Below, piece after piece: positions 11,250 to 18,809 of a stretch of DNA of 47,486 nucleotides; the stretch's first letter is position 1; each line of letters begins with the position of its first letter. This stretch comes from an uncultured archaeon. Its GTDB lineage: Archaea; Asgardarchaeota; Lokiarchaeia; Sigyniarchaeales; SOKP01. The position numbers and the translations under genes are program-made. Under the pieces are notes generated by a model, which was not told where the DNA came from, made no database searches, and saw only the letters and a program-made list of their open reading frames with translations. The stretch is from NCBI GenBank assembly GCA_964632315.1, contig CAZWEM010000021.1:16564-64049 (forward strand), given 5' to 3'.

Positions 11250-11876
11250 TTAGTCTCTAGATTTTAATTTGTTTAATTCATCTTCTAATTCTTTTACTTT
11301 ACCATCAGGTTCTACCGTAGGTAATGCCCCACCAACTTCAACTTGTATTTCAGCATCGATTTCTCCTAAAGCTTCTTTCACCTGGTCATCTGTAACTGAT
11401 GTATCAACCATCATATCGCCAATGCCATCCGAGGTGATTTCTTCAGTCAAGCTAAAATCTTCCATATCAATCCCAATTTGATCCATTAAATCAGTTAATT
11501 GAGGTATAGATAATTGACTTTTTAATATCCCTAAACTAGTAGCAATTCCTTGCATGATGTCTGCTACGTCTTTTACGGCATTTGCTTGTTCTAATTTGAA
11601 GACCATGCCCTCTAAATTAGTTCTAAAATGATCAATCGCTCTTGCTTGTTTTTTAATCTGTAGATGATTTCGAACATGAAAAGCAGATCCTTCCATATCT
11701 CCTGCTTTTCTAAGATTGACTGCTTTATCTCTTGCTAATTTCGATTTCATTTCCATATTTTTAACTTGTCTCATTAAACGTTTATTGAACACTTTCAATT
11801 TTACGGTAGCTGAACGAACAGTATCTTTCTTCTTTCCTCCGCTGAGCCATCCGCTTAAATCCTTCAGAAAACCCAT
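11250..11876 (-). CDS. ESCRT-III (Snf7 family), Vps2/24/46-like
   Basis: N-terminal amphipathic MGFLKDLSGWL, basic helical hairpin, acidic C-terminal half, C-terminal MIM-like helix; divergent from vps4. Confidence 0.9.
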   Translation of the reverse strand: MGFLKDLSGWLSGGKKKDTVRSATVKLKVFNKRLMRQVKNMEMKSKLARDKAVNLRKAGDMEGSAFHVRNHLQIKKQARAIDHFRTNLEGMVFKLEQANAVKDVADIMQGIATSLGILKSQLSIPQLTDLMDQIGIDMEDFSLTEEITSDGIGDMMVDTSVTDDQVKEALGEIDAEIQVEVGGALPTVEPDGKVKELEDELNKLKSRD

Positions 11877-11929: not shown

Positions 11930-11961
11930 TTATATAATTTTTTGGAGTCCAATACTTAAGA
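11930..11961 (-). promoter_or_regulatory. ESCRT-III promoter: TATA box (11930-11937) preceded by palindrome TTGGACTCCAA and shared flank
   Basis: Minus strand reads TCTTAAGTATTGGACTCCAAAAAATTATATAA, about 55-60 nt upstream of the ATG; near-identical element at 18788-18809. Confidence 0.6.
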
Positions 11962-12015
11962 GACAAGAGTTTAGAAAATTTGATATATTTACAAATGTTA
12001 AATAATAAAACAACG

Positions 12016-12039
12016 ATTGAACTCAGTTACCTATAAATA
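12016..12039 (+). promoter_or_regulatory. vps4 promoter: TATAAATA box preceded by ATTGAACTC (degenerate copy of ATTGGACTC)
   Basis: ATTGAACTCAGTTACCTATAAATA, TATA about 50 nt upstream of ATG 12084; same spacing to TATA as in the ESCRT-III promoter. Confidence 0.4.
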
Positions 12040-12083
12040 ATAAGAATTTCATAATAGAAATAATTACTTCGAAAGGTTTTCAC

Positions 12084-13304
12084 ATGAGTAGTGTTGATTC
12101 AAAATTATATCAAGTTGCTGTACGTGAAGCTCAAGCAGCAGTAGAGCTTGATGAGAAGGGGCAATATCGTCAAGCTATAAATAAGTATCAGAGAGCCGCT
12201 GATATCTTAATAAAGTTCATGAAATATAATAAAAATCCTCAAATGAGAATGCTCTGTCAAGATAAGGTGGAGAATTTTTTAGAACGAGTGAAAGTTTTGA
12301 AAGCACATTTAAGTGGACCTCGTGCAAGAAGAACGCATCCTACTCCTAAAATGGATGATTCCAAGGGAGATAAACCTTCTAATGGAAGTGAAAGCGAATA
12401 TTCTGCTGAAGAGCAAGAACTCATTGATTCAATTACAGGTACTATACTCACAGAATCTCCAAATGTCCGATGGACTGATATTGCGGGCTTGGAAATTTCT
12501 AAACAATCACTTCGTGAAGCAATAGTTTTACCTATCCTGAAGCCTCAGCTTTTTACTGGAGCTCGCAAACCATGGTCAGGAATTCTATTATTTGGGCCCC
12601 CAGGATGCGGAAAAACATTACTAGCTAAGGCTGCAGCTACAGAATGTAAAGCTACCTTTTTTAGTGTATCATCAGCTGATCTATTAAGCAAGTGGTTAGG
12701 CGAGAGTGAAAAATTGATCAGCTCTCTATTCAAGCTTGCTCGAATTAAAGCTCCAAGTTTAATCTTTATGGATGAAATTGATTCGGTTGCAACTAGAAGA
12801 GGTGAAGGTAGTGAGGGGGGAGGTGAAAGAAGAGTAAAAACCCAATTATTGAGTGAAATTCAAGGGGTAAAATCCACCCATGATAAAACAATGCTAGTGT
12901 TAGGTGCAACGAATCGTCCTTGGGATATTGATACTGCCATGCTTAGTAGATTTGAAAAAAAGGTGTACGTTCCACTTCCAGATATGCCTGCAAGAGCAGG
13001 AATTTTTAAAATTCACACTGCAGGAATTAATTCAGATCTATCTGATGAAGATTATGTTGAGTTAGCTGTAAGATCTGAAGGATATTCTGGAAGAGATATT
13101 TCTAATGTTTGTCGAGAAGTGATAATGATTCCAGTAAGAGAACTTGATATGGGAGGCTTACTTTCCGATGAGAACAATGAAGTTATTGTAAGGAATATCA
13201 ATTTAAATGATTTTAAGAAAACTTTGAAGAAAGTGAAACCAATGACTACAGGAAAGGAACTAAGACATTATGAAGAGTGGGCTGAAGAGTTTGGTGAATA
13301 TTAA
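12084..13304 (+). CDS. vps4: Vps4 AAA+ ATPase with N-terminal MIT domain
   Basis: MIT three-helix N-terminus (AVELDEKGQY), Walker A GPPGCGKT, pore loop SKWLGESE, Walker B IFMDE, ATNRPW, C-terminal helix ending EEFG; ESCRT context. Confidence 0.95.
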   Translation: MSSVDSKLYQVAVREAQAAVELDEKGQYRQAINKYQRAADILIKFMKYNKNPQMRMLCQDKVENFLERVKVLKAHLSGPRARRTHPTPKMDDSKGDKPSNGSESEYSAEEQELIDSITGTILTESPNVRWTDIAGLEISKQSLREAIVLPILKPQLFTGARKPWSGILLFGPPGCGKTLLAKAAATECKATFFSVSSADLLSKWLGESEKLISSLFKLARIKAPSLIFMDEIDSVATRRGEGSEGGGERRVKTQLLSEIQGVKSTHDKTMLVLGATNRPWDIDTAMLSRFEKKVYVPLPDMPARAGIFKIHTAGINSDLSDEDYVELAVRSEGYSGRDISNVCREVIMIPVRELDMGGLLSDENNEVIVRNINLNDFKKTLKKVKPMTTGKELRHYEEWAEEFGEY

Positions 13305-13325
13305 TTAAAAAGACGATGAATTAGC

Positions 13326-14204
13326 ATGGAAAGACAAAAACCAAAAGAAATACCCAAAGAAGTCAAGGAAAAGACAGATCGAGAACTGGAAGAATTACGA
13401 AGAGAATTAGCTCGCTTAAAACAATTAAAAAAACAAAAACAACTTCTCGAAATTCAAGAAGAGGATATTTCTCAAGAAGAACCATTAACTGAGGCCAAAC
13501 AAGAGAATATTGAGAAACGATTGAATAAAATTGAGGACTTTCTTACATCTAAATTAGGAGAGATTGATACTAAAGCATATGAACAAAACGCTGAAGAAAT
13601 TGAAAAAGAATTAGAGTTAATAGAAAAGGAAATTATCGGCGAGAAAGCGGTTGTTGCTAAAGAAATATCTACTTATGAACTATTATTAAGTGATTATCCA
13701 TGGTTAGAGGAACAACGTTATATATTCATGTTTTCTATTCCAAATAAAAAGAAAAATACTTCTGATTATGAATCATGGAAAAATGAATGGTCAAAGGTGT
13801 TATTTGATTATGCAAGATACGCAATTTTACACATTCTTTATTTAAGAAAGTTACATGGCATCAAACCTTTCTCTAAATTTGAGAATAGAGAAGAGGCATT
13901 GAGAGAAATTGCGGATGAACTAGTAGAAAGAGAACAAGCGGAATGGTTATCAAAGAGTAAGGAAAAACTAAGAGTTTATTGGAAGACTTTAGATAACTGG
14001 GCGGAAGAAATTTATGAGTGGGCAAAGGAAATATCTCCACTTGAACCGATCTTAATTTTTGAAATAAGAGAATCAAATCAAGAGTTTAGTACATTACCAA
14101 AAGAAGATATCGAGCAGATTTTCAAGTTATTAGAAAAAGAGAATCGTGGTAAAATCATTAAATTAGAGGATGGGCAGATCTCTTTTAAAATTACAGTGGA
14201 ATAA
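13326..14204 (+). CDS. vps25: ESCRT-II Vps25-like protein with long N-terminal coiled-coil extension
   Basis: C-terminal double winged-helix pattern W...W, AEW, VYWKTLDNWAEEIYEWA; directly downstream of vps4. Confidence 0.85.
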   Translation: MERQKPKEIPKEVKEKTDRELEELRRELARLKQLKKQKQLLEIQEEDISQEEPLTEAKQENIEKRLNKIEDFLTSKLGEIDTKAYEQNAEEIEKELELIEKEIIGEKAVVAKEISTYELLLSDYPWLEEQRYIFMFSIPNKKKNTSDYESWKNEWSKVLFDYARYAILHILYLRKLHGIKPFSKFENREEALREIADELVEREQAEWLSKSKEKLRVYWKTLDNWAEEIYEWAKEISPLEPILIFEIRESNQEFSTLPKEDIEQIFKLLEKENRGKIIKLEDGQISFKITVE

Positions 14205-14211
14205 CCTGAAC

Positions 14212-14937
14212 TTATAAAGATGGAAAAAACCACTGCTTTCCCTTCAAAATCGATGCAGTATATTTTGCTACTCCACTGTGCTCTAATGATTCAAGAGTTT
14301 TTAAGGCACGATCTTGGGACCAATCGAGTGCAGAACATACATCTTCTAAAGATATATAACCCTTTTCTCTCGCAACTCCTATAACTTGAACTTCATCTGA
14401 AGTATATTCAACTGGGAAGAACCGAATCATGACAATTCCTGAGTCATATTCTAGTAAATCATCAATCACATGCTTTTTCTTAAGAATTTTTAATGCCTTT
14501 AGTAAATCTTTAAGCTCTATGTTCCCTTTCAAAATAGCAGTATTTACTAAATCAAAAACATCTTGCATTGGGACCAAGCCTGCTCCTATCTCTTCTTTTT
14601 GCAATAATTGCCTTTGATAAGCTAATAATCCTAATTTTTCGTGATCAATTTTATTTCTTTTTACCAATACATCATGTTCGGTTATTTGCTCGGTTATAAT
14701 TTTCGAAGAAGGGATATTATATTTTTTTTGTAATTCTCTTACTTCCTCTTTTAATTCAGGGGTTAAAGCTAAAATTATTCCATGTTTTTTAGCTAAATCC
14801 CTCAACTTTTCCTTAGTAAGATTTTCTGTAGATGCTTTTTCTTGTAATTCTTTTATTTTTAATTCTGCGGCTTTCTTGCGAATTGCTTCCTTTAGATCGA
14901 TTTCATCTTCAATTTTTCTTATGCCCAAAAAAATCAC
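14212..14937 (-). CDS. ESCRT-II Vps22/36-like (EAP30 domain) protein
   Basis: LGIRKI N-terminus, GLVPMQDV, DLLKALKIL, C-terminal winged helix LDWSQDRALKTLESL...WFFPSL; TTG at 14928 after GTGAT is a plausible start. Confidence 0.85.
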   Translation of the reverse strand: MIFLGIRKIEDEIDLKEAIRKKAAELKIKELQEKASTENLTKEKLRDLAKKHGIILALTPELKEEVRELQKKYNIPSSKIITEQITEHDVLVKRNKIDHEKLGLLAYQRQLLQKEEIGAGLVPMQDVFDLVNTAILKGNIELKDLLKALKILKKKHVIDDLLEYDSGIVMIRFFPVEYTSDEVQVIGVAREKGYISLEDVCSALDWSQDRALKTLESLEHSGVAKYTASILKGKQWFFPSL

Positions 14938-14981
14938 TTAATTTTTAATCGCTAATATATCCCTAATTTTTTATACCTTAA

Positions 14982-15599
14982 ATGTCTAATATATACACAA
15001 ATTCTTATTTCTTTTTATTATCATTAATAATGATTCCTATGAATTTTAGAGCTTTGAAAAATAGTGAGTTTGAGTTTATTCAGGCAGCATTAATTCAAAT
15101 ATCTCCAAGACTTGTTTCATATGTGCAAATTCGAAGATCATTTTTATTTACTTCGATATCTGGTAAAAGGAATAAGAATTTGGTTTATATGATTACTGAA
15201 AACATCAAAAATATACAAAAAAAGCTTCAGAAAAAAGTAGATCTCATTTCAGCAGGGACATATCTAGGATTTTTAAGAATGCAAAAATTCTTTTTAAGTT
15301 TGGAAGGAGCAGAATATTTTTTTAAGGAAAAACTAATACCAGATCAAATCATTATTAGAGTTTCTAAGGAAGGAGAAAAATCTATTCTCTATGGAAATCC
15401 AATAGAAAGAAGAATGATTCTAGATAACAATTATAATGTAAAAAAGGGTTCGATTGTATTAATATTAAACCAGTTCAATGAATTAGTAGCTCTTGGTCAT
15501 GCAGAAGTGGCCCTTAATAATCTAAAATCATTTAAAGAGAGAGAAATTCTTATTTCAAATTTGATTGATAAAGGTTATTACCTAAGGAGAGCCCAATGA
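14982..15599 (+). CDS. nip7: Nip7-like large-subunit biogenesis protein (PUA domain)
   Basis: GTYLG, LSLEGA, EKSILYG, VALG, DKGYYLR; ATG 15039 probable start. Confidence 0.85.
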   Translation: MSNIYTNSYFFLLSLIMIPMNFRALKNSEFEFIQAALIQISPRLVSYVQIRRSFLFTSISGKRNKNLVYMITENIKNIQKKLQKKVDLISAGTYLGFLRMQKFFLSLEGAEYFFKEKLIPDQIIIRVSKEGEKSILYGNPIERRMILDNNYNVKKGSIVLILNQFNELVALGHAEVALNNLKSFKEREILISNLIDKGYYLRRAQ

Positions 15600-16798
15600 T
15601 CAAAGCTCAATCAAGAAGTCATATTTGGATCATTTGGATTATAACATTCTTTAATGGACTAATTTTTTACATTCCAATTTTTGCTCTATACCTACAACAA
15701 CAACTTCTAGATTTTACTGAAGTCGCATTAATTATGGCATTTCAATCAATTTTCATAATTATCTTTGAGATCCCTTCTGGAGCTTTTGCAGACCTATTTG
15801 GAAGAAAGAAATCCTTAGTTATTGGAGCTTCTCTCAATTTACTGAGTTTATTCTTTCTATATTTTGGGTCTAATTTTTTTATTCTAACACTTTTTGCAAT
15901 TACTAGTGCATTATTTCAGAGTTTAAATAGTGGCACCATTGAAGCAATAATTTATGACACCCTTAAAGAAAATGATAAAGATGAAATGAAGAATAATCAC
16001 ACAGGAAAAAAGACAACATTCAAGCAATTTATAGCAGTAAATGGTGCGATATGGCCAATATCTGCAAGTATTGCATCATTATTGGGAAGCCTCTTAAGTG
16101 TGCATGGCTATAAAATCACCATTTTAGTGACATTTTTACCTGTAATTGTTAGACTACTGCTTATCCTCAAAATTAGAGACCCTACTCAGATTAACCCCGA
16201 TAGAAAGAATATCCTGGCCCAAATAAAAGTCTCTATGAAATATATTCACATAGATAAACAAATTAAGTTGTTGTTACTATCGGGTTTTTTAGTTTATTCC
16301 TTCGCAGAAGTTGCATTTCAGATGAAACCAATTTATTTTAGCGCAATTGATTTGCCAATTGAGTATTTTGGAATTATTTATACCCTTTCTTTTGCTTTTA
16401 GTTTCCTCGGTTCAATATTCTCTGAAAGAATATCACTTTATTTTTCTTACAAAACATTATTAATTTCTGCTCAAGTCTCGATAGGACTTTTCTTTTTTGC
16501 TCCAAGTTTTATTCCTTTTGCTTTTATCAATGCAACTATTATGAGTATTGAATCGTTCTTCTGGGGGCTAAGGTGGCCAATTCAAATAGACTGGATTAAT
16601 TCAAGAATCAATTCAAAGGAAAGAGCAACGATTAATTCAGCAACAAATCTAATGAATAATCTAGGTTTTACTATCTTCGTGATTCTTGCTGGTATAAGTT
16701 TAGAAATAATAGATCCGATTTGGTTAATTAGGTTTATTGGAATTTTTCAAATATTTACGATTTTTTTACTTTTTGGGTTAAAAAATCAAATCAATTGA
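15596..16798 (+). CDS. MFS transporter
   Basis: About 12 TM helices, FEIPSGAFADLFGRKKS motif A, ERATINS; ATGA overlap with nip7. Confidence 0.93.
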   Translation: MIKAQSRSHIWIIWIITFFNGLIFYIPIFALYLQQQLLDFTEVALIMAFQSIFIIIFEIPSGAFADLFGRKKSLVIGASLNLLSLFFLYFGSNFFILTLFAITSALFQSLNSGTIEAIIYDTLKENDKDEMKNNHTGKKTTFKQFIAVNGAIWPISASIASLLGSLLSVHGYKITILVTFLPVIVRLLLILKIRDPTQINPDRKNILAQIKVSMKYIHIDKQIKLLLLSGFLVYSFAEVAFQMKPIYFSAIDLPIEYFGIIYTLSFAFSFLGSIFSERISLYFSYKTLLISAQVSIGLFFFAPSFIPFAFINATIMSIESFFWGLRWPIQIDWINSRINSKERATINSATNLMNNLGFTIFVILAGISLEIIDPIWLIRFIGIFQIFTIFLLFGLKNQIN

Positions 16799-16803
16799 AT
16801 AGA

Positions 16804-17775
16804 TTAGTAATTCTTTTGGATGAGACAAATAAAAAATCCAATTGTATCGTCAACATGAGGATAAAGGCGTAATGAATTAATCAAATCTTTCCTTAAATTT
16901 CGATTAAACACATTATTATAGCCCGGTACCCCATAATTTAAATTAATTTTAAGAATCGAGAACTTATCATTCTCTCTAAGAACATCATTTATTACAAATT
17001 CATTTTCTTCAGGTGCGATTGAACATGTACAATACACTAACCTGCCTCCCGGTTTTAACGTTTTTAAACCAGCTTTTAAAAGTTGTTTTTGGATATTTGC
17101 CAACTTTTCGATATCAGAAAGCTTTTTCGTTTTTTTTCTTTTTGGATCCTTACGGATTAAACCTTCTCCTGTACAAGGCGCATCTAATAATATCCCATCT
17201 GCCTTTAAAGTTAATGCACTTAAATTTTTAGCGTCTAAGTTGATAAGAATATAGTTATTTATTGATAATCTTCTTAGATTATACTCTAATTTAGGAATTC
17301 GATTTGCATTGCGTTCAATCAATACTAAAGATCCTTGATTATTCATTTCTTGTGCAATTTGAGTTGCCTTACTCCCAGGAGCTGCACACATATCTATAAT
17401 GAGTTCAGAAGATTTGGGAGATAGAATAAAAGCTGGTAACATGGATGCTTCATTTTGTACATAGTAATAACCTTGAAGAAATTCATGAGTAGCACCAATG
17501 CTATATCTTGATTTTAAGATCTTGAATCCATAAGGAATTTGATCAATTTGTTGAAACTCTAATCCTTTCTTCTCCAATCGAGATAATAATTTCTGAATTT
17601 CTGTTTTAATAGTATTTACCCTGATACACGGTTTTAACGGTTTTTCATTTGCTTTCAAGAGTTCTTTAGTTTCTTCTGTTCCAAGCATCTTTAAATAGCG
17701 ATCAATCATATACGGTAAGTAATCATATTTATTTGCTAGTTTAGAAATTATTGCATTATTTGGAGAGAAGTTCAA
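16804..17775 (-). CDS. Nop2/NOL1/RsmB-family RNA m5C methyltransferase
   Basis: RVNTIK, DMCAAPGSKA, DAPCTGEG, VYCTCS, EENE, GFFI. Confidence 0.95.
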   Translation of the reverse strand: MNFSPNNAIISKLANKYDYLPYMIDRYLKMLGTEETKELLKANEKPLKPCIRVNTIKTEIQKLLSRLEKKGLEFQQIDQIPYGFKILKSRYSIGATHEFLQGYYYVQNEASMLPAFILSPKSSELIIDMCAAPGSKATQIAQEMNNQGSLVLIERNANRIPKLEYNLRRLSINNYILINLDAKNLSALTLKADGILLDAPCTGEGLIRKDPKRKKTKKLSDIEKLANIQKQLLKAGLKTLKPGGRLVYCTCSIAPEENEFVINDVLRENDKFSILKINLNYGVPGYNNVFNRNLRKDLINSLRLYPHVDDTIGFFICLIQKNY

Positions 17776-17865
17776 AATCCTAACATTCCTAAAGATCTTT
17801 AGTATTATTTAATATATATTTAAGAAATCATTATATTTCTTAGCAACAATCGTAAAATCAAAAAC

Positions 17866-18468
17866 ATGTTTGAAGTAGAAATTAAAGTTAAAATTCCAGA
17901 TCCGGATATATTAAAGCAAAAGATTCGTACTCTTAACGGAGTTTATAAAACTTCACTATATCATGAAGACACTTACTTTAACATGCCTAAGGGATTGAGA
18001 GACTTCACAATTACAGATGAAGCTCTTAGATTACGAAAATCAGAAGAATTCATTGAGAATTCTGAAGAAATGGCCCATAAATCAAGCTATTTCTTGACTT
18101 ATAAAGGTAATAAACTAGATCTTAGTACTAAAACTAGAGAAGAAATCGAAGTAAGAGTGAATAACTTTGAAAAAATGTTTAAAATTATGAATGTCTTAGG
18201 GTTCCAAGAGGTTTTAACAATTCAAAAAGAAAGAGAGTTGTATGAAATAACATATTTGGATAAAAAAATTGAGCTTTTAGTGGATTATATCCCAAAATTA
18301 CAAGGCTTTTATATGGAATTAGAGATGATAGTAAATTCTATTGAAGAAATAGATGAAGCACGTGATTTTTTATTTGATTTCTTAGAGAATTTAGATATTT
18401 CTGCTAAAAATTCAATAAGAAAGTCTTACTTGGAATTGATAATAGAACAAGAAAAAGAGTTAAAATAA
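17866..18468 (+). CDS. cyaB: CYTH-domain protein (class IV adenylate cyclase-like)
   Basis: EVEIK, DTYF, ALRLR, LTYKG, REEIE, KERE, ELE, KSYLEL. Actual activity may be triphosphatase. Confidence 0.88.
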   Translation: MFEVEIKVKIPDPDILKQKIRTLNGVYKTSLYHEDTYFNMPKGLRDFTITDEALRLRKSEEFIENSEEMAHKSSYFLTYKGNKLDLSTKTREEIEVRVNNFEKMFKIMNVLGFQEVLTIQKERELYEITYLDKKIELLVDYIPKLQGFYMELEMIVNSIEEIDEARDFLFDFLENLDISAKNSIRKSYLELIIEQEKELK

Positions 18469-18508
18469 ATAAAAATTTTTTAGAAAAAATCTAAACTGAT
18501 ATAAAATG

Positions 18509-18715
18509 TTAACATAGATCAGATTCTTGCTGAGATATTAATTGATCTATCATTTTTATCTCTTTATCTAGCTTTTTTTTACAAACCTCAATGTTAAAGT
18601 TGTCATATATAATCCGAGTGTTATTTTTTTGTATAGATATTAACTTTCCACATAATTTCTGAACTACATTCAAATACTCATAATATTCTGATGCAGATTT
18701 AACTTCAGCAGCCAT
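18509..18715 (-). CDS. small hypothetical protein, predicted two-helix hairpin
   Basis: 68-aa ATG ORF filling an intergenic gap, with its own TATA-like box and the shared palindrome upstream. Confidence 0.6.
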   Translation of the reverse strand: MAAEVKSASEYYEYLNVVQKLCGKLISIQKNNTRIIYDNFNIEVCKKKLDKEIKMIDQLISQQESDLC

Positions 18716-18777
18716 AATTTATCATTAATTATTTTTATTTCTACTTTATTTCTTAAATTATGAATATTAGAATCACC

Positions 18778-18809
18778 TAATAAAAGATTTGGAGTCCAGT
18801 ATTCTAAGA
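18778..18809 (-). promoter_or_regulatory. promoter of the 68-aa gene: TTTTATTA box preceded by TGGACTCCA palindrome
   Basis: Minus strand TCTTAGAATACTGGACTCCAAATCTTTTATTAG; 19 of 22 aligned columns match 11941-11961. Confidence 0.58.

Follow-up and report, generated by a model that had tools for sequence, protein, structure and literature searches.

Background

Short upstream sites that abut the BRE are known from several archaea, and include the Ptr2 UAS of Methanocaldococcus, the TFB-RF1 site of Pyrococcus and the GvpE UAS of haloarchaea. The position directly upstream of BRE and TATA box is typical of factors that recruit TBP and TFB. With regard to ESCRT-type genes, the Sulfolobales have the 9-bp aCcr1-box (CCR-2 box), which is the site of an RHH repressor of cdvA (PMC9976878), and in Sulfolobus acidocaldarius TFB2 drives cdvB, cdvB1, cdvB2 and other division genes, its targets differing in BRE-TATA spacing (bioRxiv 10.64898/2026.09.06.749720). 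The bacterial protein PspA belongs to the ESCRT-III superfamily, and HAAS domains and Zn-ribbon membrane partners are found around it repeatedly (PMC11237479).

For Asgard archaea we found no published work on transcriptional control of ESCRT genes. The Asgard ESCRT papers that we searched argue from gene neighbourhoods, and promoters go unmentioned in the main survey. We discuss here a promoter element in a 47,486-nt stretch of DNA from an uncultured lokiarchaeon (the window), and in the genome that it comes from and its relatives. We found no publication that describes this motif.

The element and its two copies in the window

A sequence-only reading of the window had drawn attention to two matching stretches, TTTGGAGTCCAATACT-TAAGA (11941-11961) and TTTGGAGTCCAGTATTCTAAGA (18788-18809). 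The letters are exactly as it gave them, with 19 of 22 columns matching and 11 consecutive identities, and both copies are intergenic and oriented with their gene, each with a TATA box 5-6 nt downstream. Read in gene orientation, the sites give the consensus TAAnnATTGG[A/T]CT[A/C]C, after which come an A/T-rich spacer at the would-be BRE position and the TATA box. The element spans about 15-18 bp and is asymmetric, and every site points toward its gene. The spacer, from the 3' end of the core to the TATA box, is 5-9 nt long, which includes a 3-nt insertion within the genus, and the strong sites of this genome have their core 43-123 nt, mostly 64-80 nt, from the start codon. At several promoters there is a second T/A-rich block about 12-14 nt further downstream.

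Copy 1 (11944..11959, minus strand; TTAAGTATTGGACTCC in gene orientation, with the core TGGACTCC running from 11951 to 11944) lies upstream of the ESCRT-III gene and scores 21.7 bits on the position weight matrix (PWM), its core being 54-61 nt before the ATG at 11876. The rest of this promoter (11930..11943, minus strand) consists of an A-tract spacer, AAAAAA at 11938-11943, which is the probable BRE position, and the TATA box TTATATAA at 11930-11937. Spacer and TATA box are nearly invariant in the genus alignment, and over 58 distinct sequences their column identity is 0.7-0.9.

Copy 2 (18791..18806, minus strand; TTAGAATACTGGACTCC in gene orientation, core from 18798 to 18791) is upstream of a gene for a 68-aa protein and scores 22.5 bits. 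Its core is 63-70 nt before the ATG at 18715, and in the promoter that follows (18778..18790, minus strand) the spacer is AAATC and the TATA-like box is TTTTATTA (18778-18785). The sequence TTTTATTAGGTGA is kept in this promoter in the closest relatives. The TATA assignments, and likewise the co-expression of the targets, we infer from sequence.

The further copies that had been proposed did not hold up. The degenerate copy ATTGAACTC at vps4 scores below 8 bits and is not conserved beyond close relatives, and the variants TATTAGAC at the Vps22/36-like gene and TATTGGAG at ligA are each below 8 bits as against 21.7 and 22.5 for the real sites. Membership of vps4, the Vps22/36-like gene and ligA in the regulon is thus not supported. 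The vps4 promoter (12016..12039, plus strand) has a separate conserved element that is not a copy of the motif: the conserved word is (A/T)TAGATTAGC, which abuts TATAAATA (12032-12039) in more than 40 species. A second conserved block, AGAAAATTTGATATAT (11973..11988, plus strand), lies in the middle of the divergent region between ESCRT-III and vps4 and is conserved across genera; it has no clear association with promoters genome-wide.

The core had also been read as a palindrome, TGGA-n-TCCA, and hence as the site of a symmetric dimeric factor. Most species carry TGGTCTAC, the commonest forms at ESCRT-III among further species being TGGTCTAC (34) and TGGTCTCC (17), and dyad symmetry is not conserved. 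Only the variant in this genome, TGGA-C-TCCA, is symmetric, and the palindrome is evidently an accident of this genome. With the conserved site asymmetric and all sites facing their gene, the symmetric dimer drawn from it is not supported either.

Distribution in the genome

In the window, TGGACTCCAAA is the sole 11-mer with at least four G/C that is common to different intergenic regions. A shared 11-mer with at least five G/C arises in 10% of shuffles at this scale, so that the window alone is only suggestive, and for the 10-mer with one mismatch there are 5 occurrences against 2.45 expected.

The whole genome gives a clearer picture. Exact TTGGAGTCCA is present 13 times in 4.45 Mb, and all of the five intergenic occurrences face an ATG 43-77 nt downstream. 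The core TGGACTCC was observed 10 times in sense-oriented 200-nt upstream regions, with 1.3 expected from Markov simulation (maximum 6) and 1.0 analytically, and is the top-ranking non-repeat word among 41,728 G/C-containing 8-mers (P=1.2e-7, about 0.005 after Bonferroni correction). The genome-wide positional bias that had been named as support for a regulatory site is thus present, and is strict for both orientation and position. The element is found at about 11-20 of some 3,200 upstream regions, with about 11 strong sites, and on this sequence evidence we are dealing with a small regulon of about a dozen promoters.

It had been noted that the word could be just a lineage-specific BRE. A general BRE directly adjoins the TATA box and is found at most promoters, whereas this element is rare and stands 5-9 nt away from the TATA box. 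Upstream of 302 strong TATA boxes the nucleotide profile contains neither such an element nor GGACTCC, and all that it shows is a weak A/C bias between -3 and -7. Rarity and absence from the general promoter profile exclude the lineage BRE.

Members of the regulon

The conserved core comprises both ESCRT-III paralogs, a Zn-ribbon and coiled-coil protein, a single-helix protein of 58-71 aa, a transmembrane (TM) family with a C-terminal Zn-ribbon and a HAAS-domain membrane protein. Two are encoded in the window. The Vps4-adjacent ESCRT-III paralog (11250..11876, minus strand) is a Snf7 family protein of 208 aa (Pfam Snf7, E=6.8e-16). The 68-aa protein (18509..18715, minus strand) is a small conserved protein that matches no Pfam family and is predicted to be a coiled-coil former with a single long helix (residues 2-67 in the AlphaFold2 prediction, mean pLDDT 86.7). 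It has orthologs in 18 of 24 same-genus genomes, several kb from ESCRT-III and on the same contig where both can be placed.

Most members other than ESCRT-III are zinc-ribbon and membrane proteins, out of sight for a reading of a single window. The zinc-ribbon pattern CxxC-x(6-25)-CxxC is found in the proteins of 6 of the 11 strong targets, while its share in the proteome is 5.6% (P about 1e-5, a post hoc figure). Some members in this genome are recent recruits: the motif at Znr-LOR is present only here and in the closest relative, and that at the C25 gene in 4 of 12.

The name ESCRT regulon, as first proposed, is apt in part. The element is present at the two ESCRT-III (Snf7-family) genes and absent from those for Vps4, ESCRT-II and the Znr_CC_PH_SB adaptor. 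As the ESCRT-III genes are the only ones of the ESCRT machinery to carry it, the regulon is one of ESCRT-III subunits with Zn-ribbon and membrane partners and not of the whole machinery. It also suggests that the filament subunits, rather than the ATPase, are the regulated step.

Conservation at orthologous promoters

The sequence-only reading had made its case depend on conservation at orthologous ESCRT-III promoters, and the element is indeed kept there. In the case of the Vps4-adjacent gene, [AT]TGG[AT]CT[AC]C is at the orthologous position in 22 same-genus genomes and in 60 of 61 further species, and the element is also found in other genera and in a second family. It is conserved too in the promoter of the second ESCRT-III paralog, where in this genus the distance from site to start codon is about 140 nt and T replaces C as the last base. 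The 68-aa gene has kept TGGACTCC in 17 of 18 orthologous promoters, though the proteins are just 35-52% identical. Within the genus the element is present in all 21 promoters of the Zn-ribbon coiled-coil gene, which has variants of it in genus g18 and family f2, and in all 12 of the HAAS-TM gene; the TM Zn-ribbon family has it in 11 of 15 promoters, often as two tandem sites.

In the motif, columns have an identity of 0.9-1.0, as against 0.2-0.5 in the upstream flank, and in the alignments the flanking DNA is scrambled. Regulon promoters have lineage-specific sequence variants in common. In a closed genome from family f2, which serves as an independent replicate, GGWCTCCTA is present 8 times, and its only occurrences in promoter context are at the two ESCRT-III genes. 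The Zn-ribbon coiled-coil gene and the ESCRT-III genes have retained the site in at least two families of the order. At the core promoters it is, from these alignments, evidently under purifying selection across the genus.

What reads the element

Retention at the same promoters in many related species makes it very probable that a regulator of membrane-remodelling genes docks at the element. The explanation we prefer, with rather better than even confidence, is a regulator site upstream of BRE and TATA box that controls ESCRT-III and its partners. The most likely reader is a dedicated transcription factor that abuts the BRE, the main rival being a specialised TFB paralog. The putative sequence-specific DNA-binding protein would sit directly upstream of TFB and TBP and contact the pre-initiation complex in fixed geometry, and ESCRT-III and its putative membrane partners would be switched on together. 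We slightly favour activation, by recruitment of TFB/TBP, over blocking. There are points on the other side. The spacing variation of 5-9 nt is loose for a rigid protein-protein contact, and the perfect TATA box of the ESCRT-III promoter is as compatible with repression as with activation. The asymmetry of the site also counts against the proposal, since archaeal regulators usually bind symmetric sites as dimers.

In the main rival, which we consider rather unlikely, one of the TFB paralogs would itself read the element, as a displaced or extended BRE and with no separate factor, the abundance of that paralog setting expression of ESCRT-III and partners. The genome encodes seven TFB genes (14 cyclin repeats), the element is strictly oriented and next to the BRE position, and its 3' end ([A/C]C and the A-tract) is BRE-like. 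However the best-conserved bases (TTGG, CT and the upstream TAA) are 7-20 nt upstream of the TATA box, beyond the usual reach of TFB, whose core HTH usually contacts roughly 6-7 nt in TBP-TFBc-DNA structures. The variable spacing to the TATA box also argues against it, as does the ordinary length of all seven TFBs (open frames of 299-323 aa), which have no extra DNA-binding extension. The division-gene promoters of TFB2 in S. acidocaldarius are a precedent (bioRxiv 10.64898/2026.09.06.749720), but Sulfolobus tfb2 belongs to its own regulon, and we found no element upstream of the TFB genes that we examined, which exclude the C16 copy.

It is a special case of our preferred explanation, in that it names the factor, that the element is bound by a PadR-like winged-helix regulator with a C-terminal zinc ribbon (C32:44381-44902), with HAAS proteins as sensors in a Psp/Lia-like loop. 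The genome has only two HAAS genes, of which one is the core regulon member and the other is in an operon with this PadR-ZnR gene, 2.4 kb from the first, and the two HAAS loci are 1-3 kb apart in the five relatives where both were found (G002, G005, G008, G012 and G013). PadR dimers normally require longer symmetric operators, which counts against such a role, and the PadR promoter itself has palindromes of the ATGT...ACAT/AGTAT type and not the motif. HAAS invariably has a PadR-like wHTH factor as its partner, and it has links to PspA systems (PMC11237479). However we found no PadR-ZnR ortholog in five near-complete genomes that have the motif (G010, 93% complete; G069, 100%; G072, 97%; G068, 99%; G075, 95%), and clear orthologs occur in genus g14 and families f6 and f7, whose ESCRT-III promoter shows no motif. 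The candidate is weakened, and we regard it as improbable.

That the word is a chance repeat or neutral ancestral carry-over with no regulatory role, as the lack of significance at the scale of the window might indicate, is effectively refuted by the enrichment that holds after Bonferroni correction, the fully consistent orientation, the retention of the motif amid unalignable flanks and diverged proteins, its recurrence at six non-homologous gene families and the closed genome of another family with its promoter matches confined to ESCRT-III, and the flanks argue too against recent horizontal spread of one promoter cassette.

Implications

The conserved word yields a first candidate regulon around ESCRT-III for the lineage closest to eukaryotes. 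It singles out putatively co-regulated and uncharacterised candidates for ESCRT-III partners (the Zn-ribbon coiled-coil protein, the single-helix protein, the TM zinc-ribbon family and the HAAS sensor), and it provides a bait of 20-25 bp for the regulator, from cultured relatives or from panels of recombinant proteins.

With less assurance, the programme may be a membrane-remodelling or membrane-stress response like that of bacterial Psp/Lia and not purely a cell-division wave. A tentative extension, possible but on balance doubtful, makes the element the switch of an Asgard membrane-repair and remodelling programme, a counterpart of Psp/Lia in which both ESCRT-III subunits would be induced with hitherto unnoticed partners (the Zn-ribbon coiled-coil protein, the single-helix protein and the TM zinc-ribbon proteins), by a regulator that predates eukaryotic ESCRT control. 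The TM zinc-ribbon proteins would then recruit to the membrane like CdvA, LiaI or ESCRT-I, and the HAAS sensor would provide feedback. Co-regulation of ESCRT-III with such partners would give a lead to new factors for ESCRT-III recruitment in the archaea most closely related to eukaryotes.

Comparison with known systems

As with the archaeal UAS sites, we have a short conserved oriented element directly upstream of BRE and TATA box at a limited set of promoters. As expected of a UAS or operator, the word is fixed and promoter-proximal, is enriched at that set and is conserved amid diverging flanks, with the factor itself putative. Its sequence is unrelated to those sites and asymmetric rather than dyad, and with it come new targets (ESCRT-III and zinc-ribbon membrane proteins) and a new lineage (Promethearchaeota).

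The aCcr1-box is similar in being a short motif, often in one or two copies, that is kept at orthologous promoters of ESCRT-type genes across an order. However it targets cdvA, whereas the present element, which differs in sequence and position, is asymmetric and upstream of the TATA box at the ESCRT-III genes themselves. At the TFB2 promoters of S. acidocaldarius, too, ESCRT-III paralogs and genes of unknown function come under common control by way of a distinct architecture close to BRE and TATA box (bioRxiv 10.64898/2026.09.06.749720), and the present genome likewise has many TFB paralogs. Only changed BRE-TATA spacing is reported there, in contrast to the specific conserved word of 8-15 nt here, which no TFB gene examined carries in its own promoter.

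In the case of bacterial Psp/Lia, control is by sigma54/PspF or LiaRS and not at an archaeal TBP/TFB promoter, and the phyletic pattern does not support our PadR candidate. The effector here is a Snf7-type ESCRT-III that works with Vps4. In both, however, an ESCRT-III-superfamily effector (PspA/LiaH in bacteria) is controlled jointly with small membrane proteins, and a HAAS-domain sensor and zinc-ribbon partners also feature (PMC11237479). The two Snf7 genes, the TM zinc-ribbon proteins and the HAAS-TM gene that share the motif make up a Psp/Lia-like set of targets, a resemblance and not homology of the circuit.

The element and its distribution in the genome

A putative cis-regulatory element with both statistical and phylogenetic support defines an ESCRT-III-centred regulon in Promethearchaeia. 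In this the central claim of a sequence-only reading of the window holds, although its palindrome and dimer detail and its weaker copies do not. The window is C21:16564-64049 of a genome of 4.45 Mb in 119 contigs with 33% G+C, and in it the Vps4-adjacent ESCRT-III (Snf7) gene (11250-11876, minus strand) is divergent from vps4 (12084-13304), with a Vps25-like ESCRT-II gene (13326-14204), an EAP30 (Vps22/36-like) gene (14212-14937, minus) and, some 7 kb away from ESCRT-III, an ORF of 68 aa (18509-18715, minus) that matches no Pfam family. The two copies of 21-22 nt reported in that reading are present. Copy 1, in the ESCRT-III promoter (11944-11959, minus), reads ...TAAGTATTGGACTCC-AAAAAA-TTATATAA in the orientation of its gene, and copy 2, in the promoter of the 68-aa gene (18791-18806, minus), reads ...AGAATACTGGACTCC-AAATC-TTTTATTA. 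The 11-mer of the element is the sole intergenic 11-mer with at least four G/C that different regions of the window have in common, but as 10% of shuffles give a comparable shared 11-mer, the window alone proves nothing.

Across the whole genome the element is significant. Exact TTGGAGTCCA occurs 13 times, 5 of them intergenic, each of these being oriented toward an ATG at a distance of 43-77 nt. There are 20 intergenic occurrences of GGACTCC, about 11 being in the context (A/T)TTGGACTCC followed by T/A-rich or TATA sequence, and every one of these faces the downstream gene. Among some 3,200 sense-oriented upstream regions TGGACTCC is found 10 times against 1.0-1.3 expected, and it is the top non-repeat word (P=1.2e-7, Bonferroni about 0.005) when every 8-mer with at least four G/C is ranked without bias. 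That the element is simply the general BRE of the organism, a possibility raised from the start, can be rejected, since the base profile 5' of 302 strong TATA boxes includes nothing resembling it.

The consensus is TAAnnATTGG[A/T]CT[A/C]C-(A/T)5-9-TATA and is asymmetric. The palindrome is a property only of the A...C variant of this genome and the symmetry is not conserved, so we do not retain the dimeric factor that had been deduced from it.

Genes with the element

Eleven targets have strong sites, and there are two in tandem for one of them, a 175-aa TM and Zn-ribbon protein. The others are the Vps4-adjacent ESCRT-III gene, the 68-aa gene, and genes for a 285-aa protein with an N-terminal Zn-ribbon and coiled-coil (divergent from a 482-aa gene), a 253-aa multi-TM protein with a C-terminal Zn ribbon, a TM double-Zn-ribbon protein, a Zn-ribbon and LURP-one/scramblase-like protein (Zn-ribbon-LOR), a 534-aa Zn-ribbon multi-TM protein, a 73-aa protein, a small TM ORF and a 427-aa HAAS-domain membrane protein. 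One-mismatch sites (bactofilin, RadA, UPF0182, Znr-HEAT and others) were left out of the set. Six of these 11 proteins contain CxxC-x(6-25)-CxxC, a pattern found in 5.6% of the predicted proteins as a whole (P about 1e-5, in a test chosen post hoc).

Between the gene for the TM double-Zn-ribbon protein and its site lies, at C3:~68,600-68,750 (L002, minus), an unannotated 47-aa Zn-ribbon ORF (MPEKENK...CFACG...CPYCDTELK), which is probably the first gene of the operon. The 73-aa and 534-aa proteins, encoded at C11:80641-80862 and C25:20073-21677 (L071 and L007), are a motif-bearing pair, the former being homologous to the C-terminal domain of the latter (35% identity over 49 aa, E=8e-10) with a common ELAFL-K-Q segment; a HAAS-like match for the 73-aa entry is sub-threshold (E=0.015). 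A likeness of the Zn-ribbon coiled-coil protein to CdvA was set aside, being a weak lead in feature space only (score 0.84) with no Pfam CdvA match.

The second Snf7 gene, ESCRT-III B (C1:126092-126739, or L069:190-840, minus), carries ATTGGTCTAT, and its orthologs have TGGACT[A/C]T within the genus and, in a second family, f2, either TGGACTCC or TGGTCTAC. The gene seems to start with CTG in this genome, and with GTG or ATG in its relatives. The motif is in this genus about 140 nt upstream of the start, which implies either that the leader is long or that a nearer promoter has gone unrecognised, and it nearly abuts the start codon of a divergent 365-aa gene.

The 68-aa protein had been taken for an orphan and is a member of a conserved family of 58-71 aa with the motif EYYEFL...SIQKD...LDKL, and its gene is on the same contig as the ESCRT-III gene, several kb apart, wherever both can be placed. 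The predicted structure is a single long helix (pLDDT 86.7), with neither an RHH nor an HTH fold, and we therefore reject a role as a small DNA-binding regulator like aCcr1; as a helix the protein is rather a candidate for coiled-coil pairing with the co-regulated proteins.

Conservation at orthologous promoters

The ESCRT-III promoters of 22 genomes of the genus have an invariant block ATTGGTCT(ACA)ACAAAAAATTATATAA, and the DNA further upstream cannot be aligned. The expectation that the motif would be conserved upstream of orthologous ESCRT-III genes is borne out in 60 of 61 further species, where [AT]TGG[AT]CT[AC]C precedes the ATG by 58-81 nt, with all four A/T x A/C combinations found at this position. 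It is kept at this promoter in other genera of the family and in family f2, and most of family f1 has it. One of the two genomes of family f5 examined has a related word, ATTGGTCTAA, and in g14 (a genus) and the families f6 and f7 the motif was not seen at this promoter.

Several public MAGs titled Hodarchaeota, Hermodarchaeota, Thorarchaeota or Odinarchaeota (loci L170, L188, L189, L200, L201, L206, L207, L210, L215, L219 and L220) have an ESCRT-III 65-84% identical to that discussed here and the same promoter word, and the phylum labels of these records look to be at odds with their content.

The 68-aa gene has orthologs in 18 of 24 genomes of the genus, with proteins only 35-52% identical, and TGGACTCC is kept in 17 of the 18 promoters. 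In a site-anchored alignment column identity is 0.9-1.0 from the TAA seven bases 5' of TGG to the TATA box, against 0.2-0.5 in the flank. The motif is in all 21 promoters of the Zn-ribbon coiled-coil gene in the genus (with variants in genus g18 and family f2), in 12/12 for the HAAS-TM gene, 11/15 for the TM-Znr family and 4/12 for the C25 gene, and for the Zn-ribbon-LOR gene only in this genome and its nearest relative. By this pattern the putative regulon is divided into a core and recent recruits.

In genus g9 the ESCRT-III B promoter has CTGGCGCCC in G038 and G040 and CTGGGCTCT in G036, and the Zn-ribbon coiled-coil promoter of G038 has CTGGCTCCC, so that the two promoters have a shifted variant in common, which is to be expected if a factor and its sites evolve together. 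CTGGC[G/T]CCC in g9 is an example of such a variant specific to a lineage. A scan of G032, a closed f2 genome, with GGWCTCCTA, which is specific but narrow, gave 8 matches, with promoter context only at the two ESCRT-III genes. The TGGSKCYC scan of G038 (200 matches, 151 in the control) is too loose to inform.

ESCRT genes outside the regulon

The proposal of an ESCRT regulon stands for the ESCRT-III genes, but vps4, ESCRT-II and ESCRT-I-like genes lack the element, which among the ESCRT genes thus marks those of the ESCRT-III subunits. At the vps4 promoter (12020-12039) the supposed degenerate copy, ATTGAACTC, is not conserved beyond close relatives, and what is kept instead, in more than 40 species, is a distinct element, (A/T)TAGATTAGC abutting TATAAATA. 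Judged by its promoter sequence, the ATPase/ESCRT-II operon thus appears to be under a control of its own, apart from that of the ESCRT-III genes. The variants put forward for the Vps22/36-like gene (TATTAGAC) and ligA (TATTGGAG) score below 8 bits and have no CT[A/C]C half, and the gene for the ESCRT-I-like adaptor Znr_CC_PH_SB was rejected as a member as its upstream region has no motif.

As an 8-mer TATTGGAG is over-represented in the window, with 9 occurrences for 2.4 expected, and 0 of 100 shuffles reach that number; by their coordinates the sites (1978, 4490, 15820, 22039 and 24932 for example) are mostly inside ORFs, and the excess may be due to codon or dipeptide bias. Between the ESCRT-III and vps4 promoters there is also a mid-intergenic block at 11973-11988, AGAAAATTTGATATAT (AAATTTGATATA), kept across several genera as (G)TAAATTTGATATAT, which may be another regulator site. 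A genome-wide promoter pattern was sought for AAATTTGATATA and none was clear, and it was dropped as a second regulon word.

Candidate binding factors

A functionally coherent gene set has in common a conserved, oriented, promoter-proximal word, on which a putative sequence-specific protein would adjoin TFB/TBP. Archaeal activators usually sit immediately 5' of the BRE. However, the TATA box of ESCRT-III matches the consensus perfectly, which makes repression by TFB occlusion nearly as likely as activation.

The main alternative is that the element is read by a specialised TFB paralog. Seven TFBs are encoded in the genome (on C16, C20, C25, C3, C58, C24 and C34), and there is a precedent in Sulfolobus TFB2, which drives ESCRT-III division genes from promoters with altered BRE-TATA spacing (bioRxiv 10.64898/2026.09.06.749720). 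However the best-conserved bases are at a distance of 7-20 nt from TATA, the gap between element and TATA varies by up to 4 nt, the TFBs are of ordinary length, and the word is absent from every TFB promoter examined, on which ground TFB autoregulation was rejected too. One TFB gene (C34:~46,940-47,852) is about 450 nt upstream of the motif site that precedes the small TM ORF.

A PadR-ZnR regulator (PadR-like with a C-terminal Zn ribbon) is a weak candidate. The conserved locus at C32:40714-45923 comprises the motif-bearing HAAS membrane protein, an MFS transporter, a DUF998 protein, PadR-ZnR and then the only other HAAS protein of the genome, with PadR-ZnR 2.4 kb from the HAAS target, a linkage kept in five relatives. 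Attractive as this synteny is, the candidate is weakened by its phyletic distribution and by the promoter of its own gene: an ortholog was not found in five near-complete motif-bearing genomes, the gene is present in lineages without the motif, and its promoter has different palindromes (AGTAT/ATGT-type).

Relation to known systems

In full-text searches of the literature no account of a promoter motif or an ESCRT regulon in Asgard archaea was found, and the main Asgard ESCRT survey makes no mention of promoters. The element, as a putative regulator site abutting an archaeal core promoter, does belong to a known type of system. With regard to function, the regulon is made up of an ESCRT-III-superfamily effector, small or multi-TM zinc-ribbon proteins and a HAAS sensor, a set that mirrors the partners catalogued around bacterial PspA/LiaH (PMC11237479), and by this analogy a membrane-remodelling or membrane-stress programme is slightly favoured over a division-cycle wave of the Sulfolobus type.
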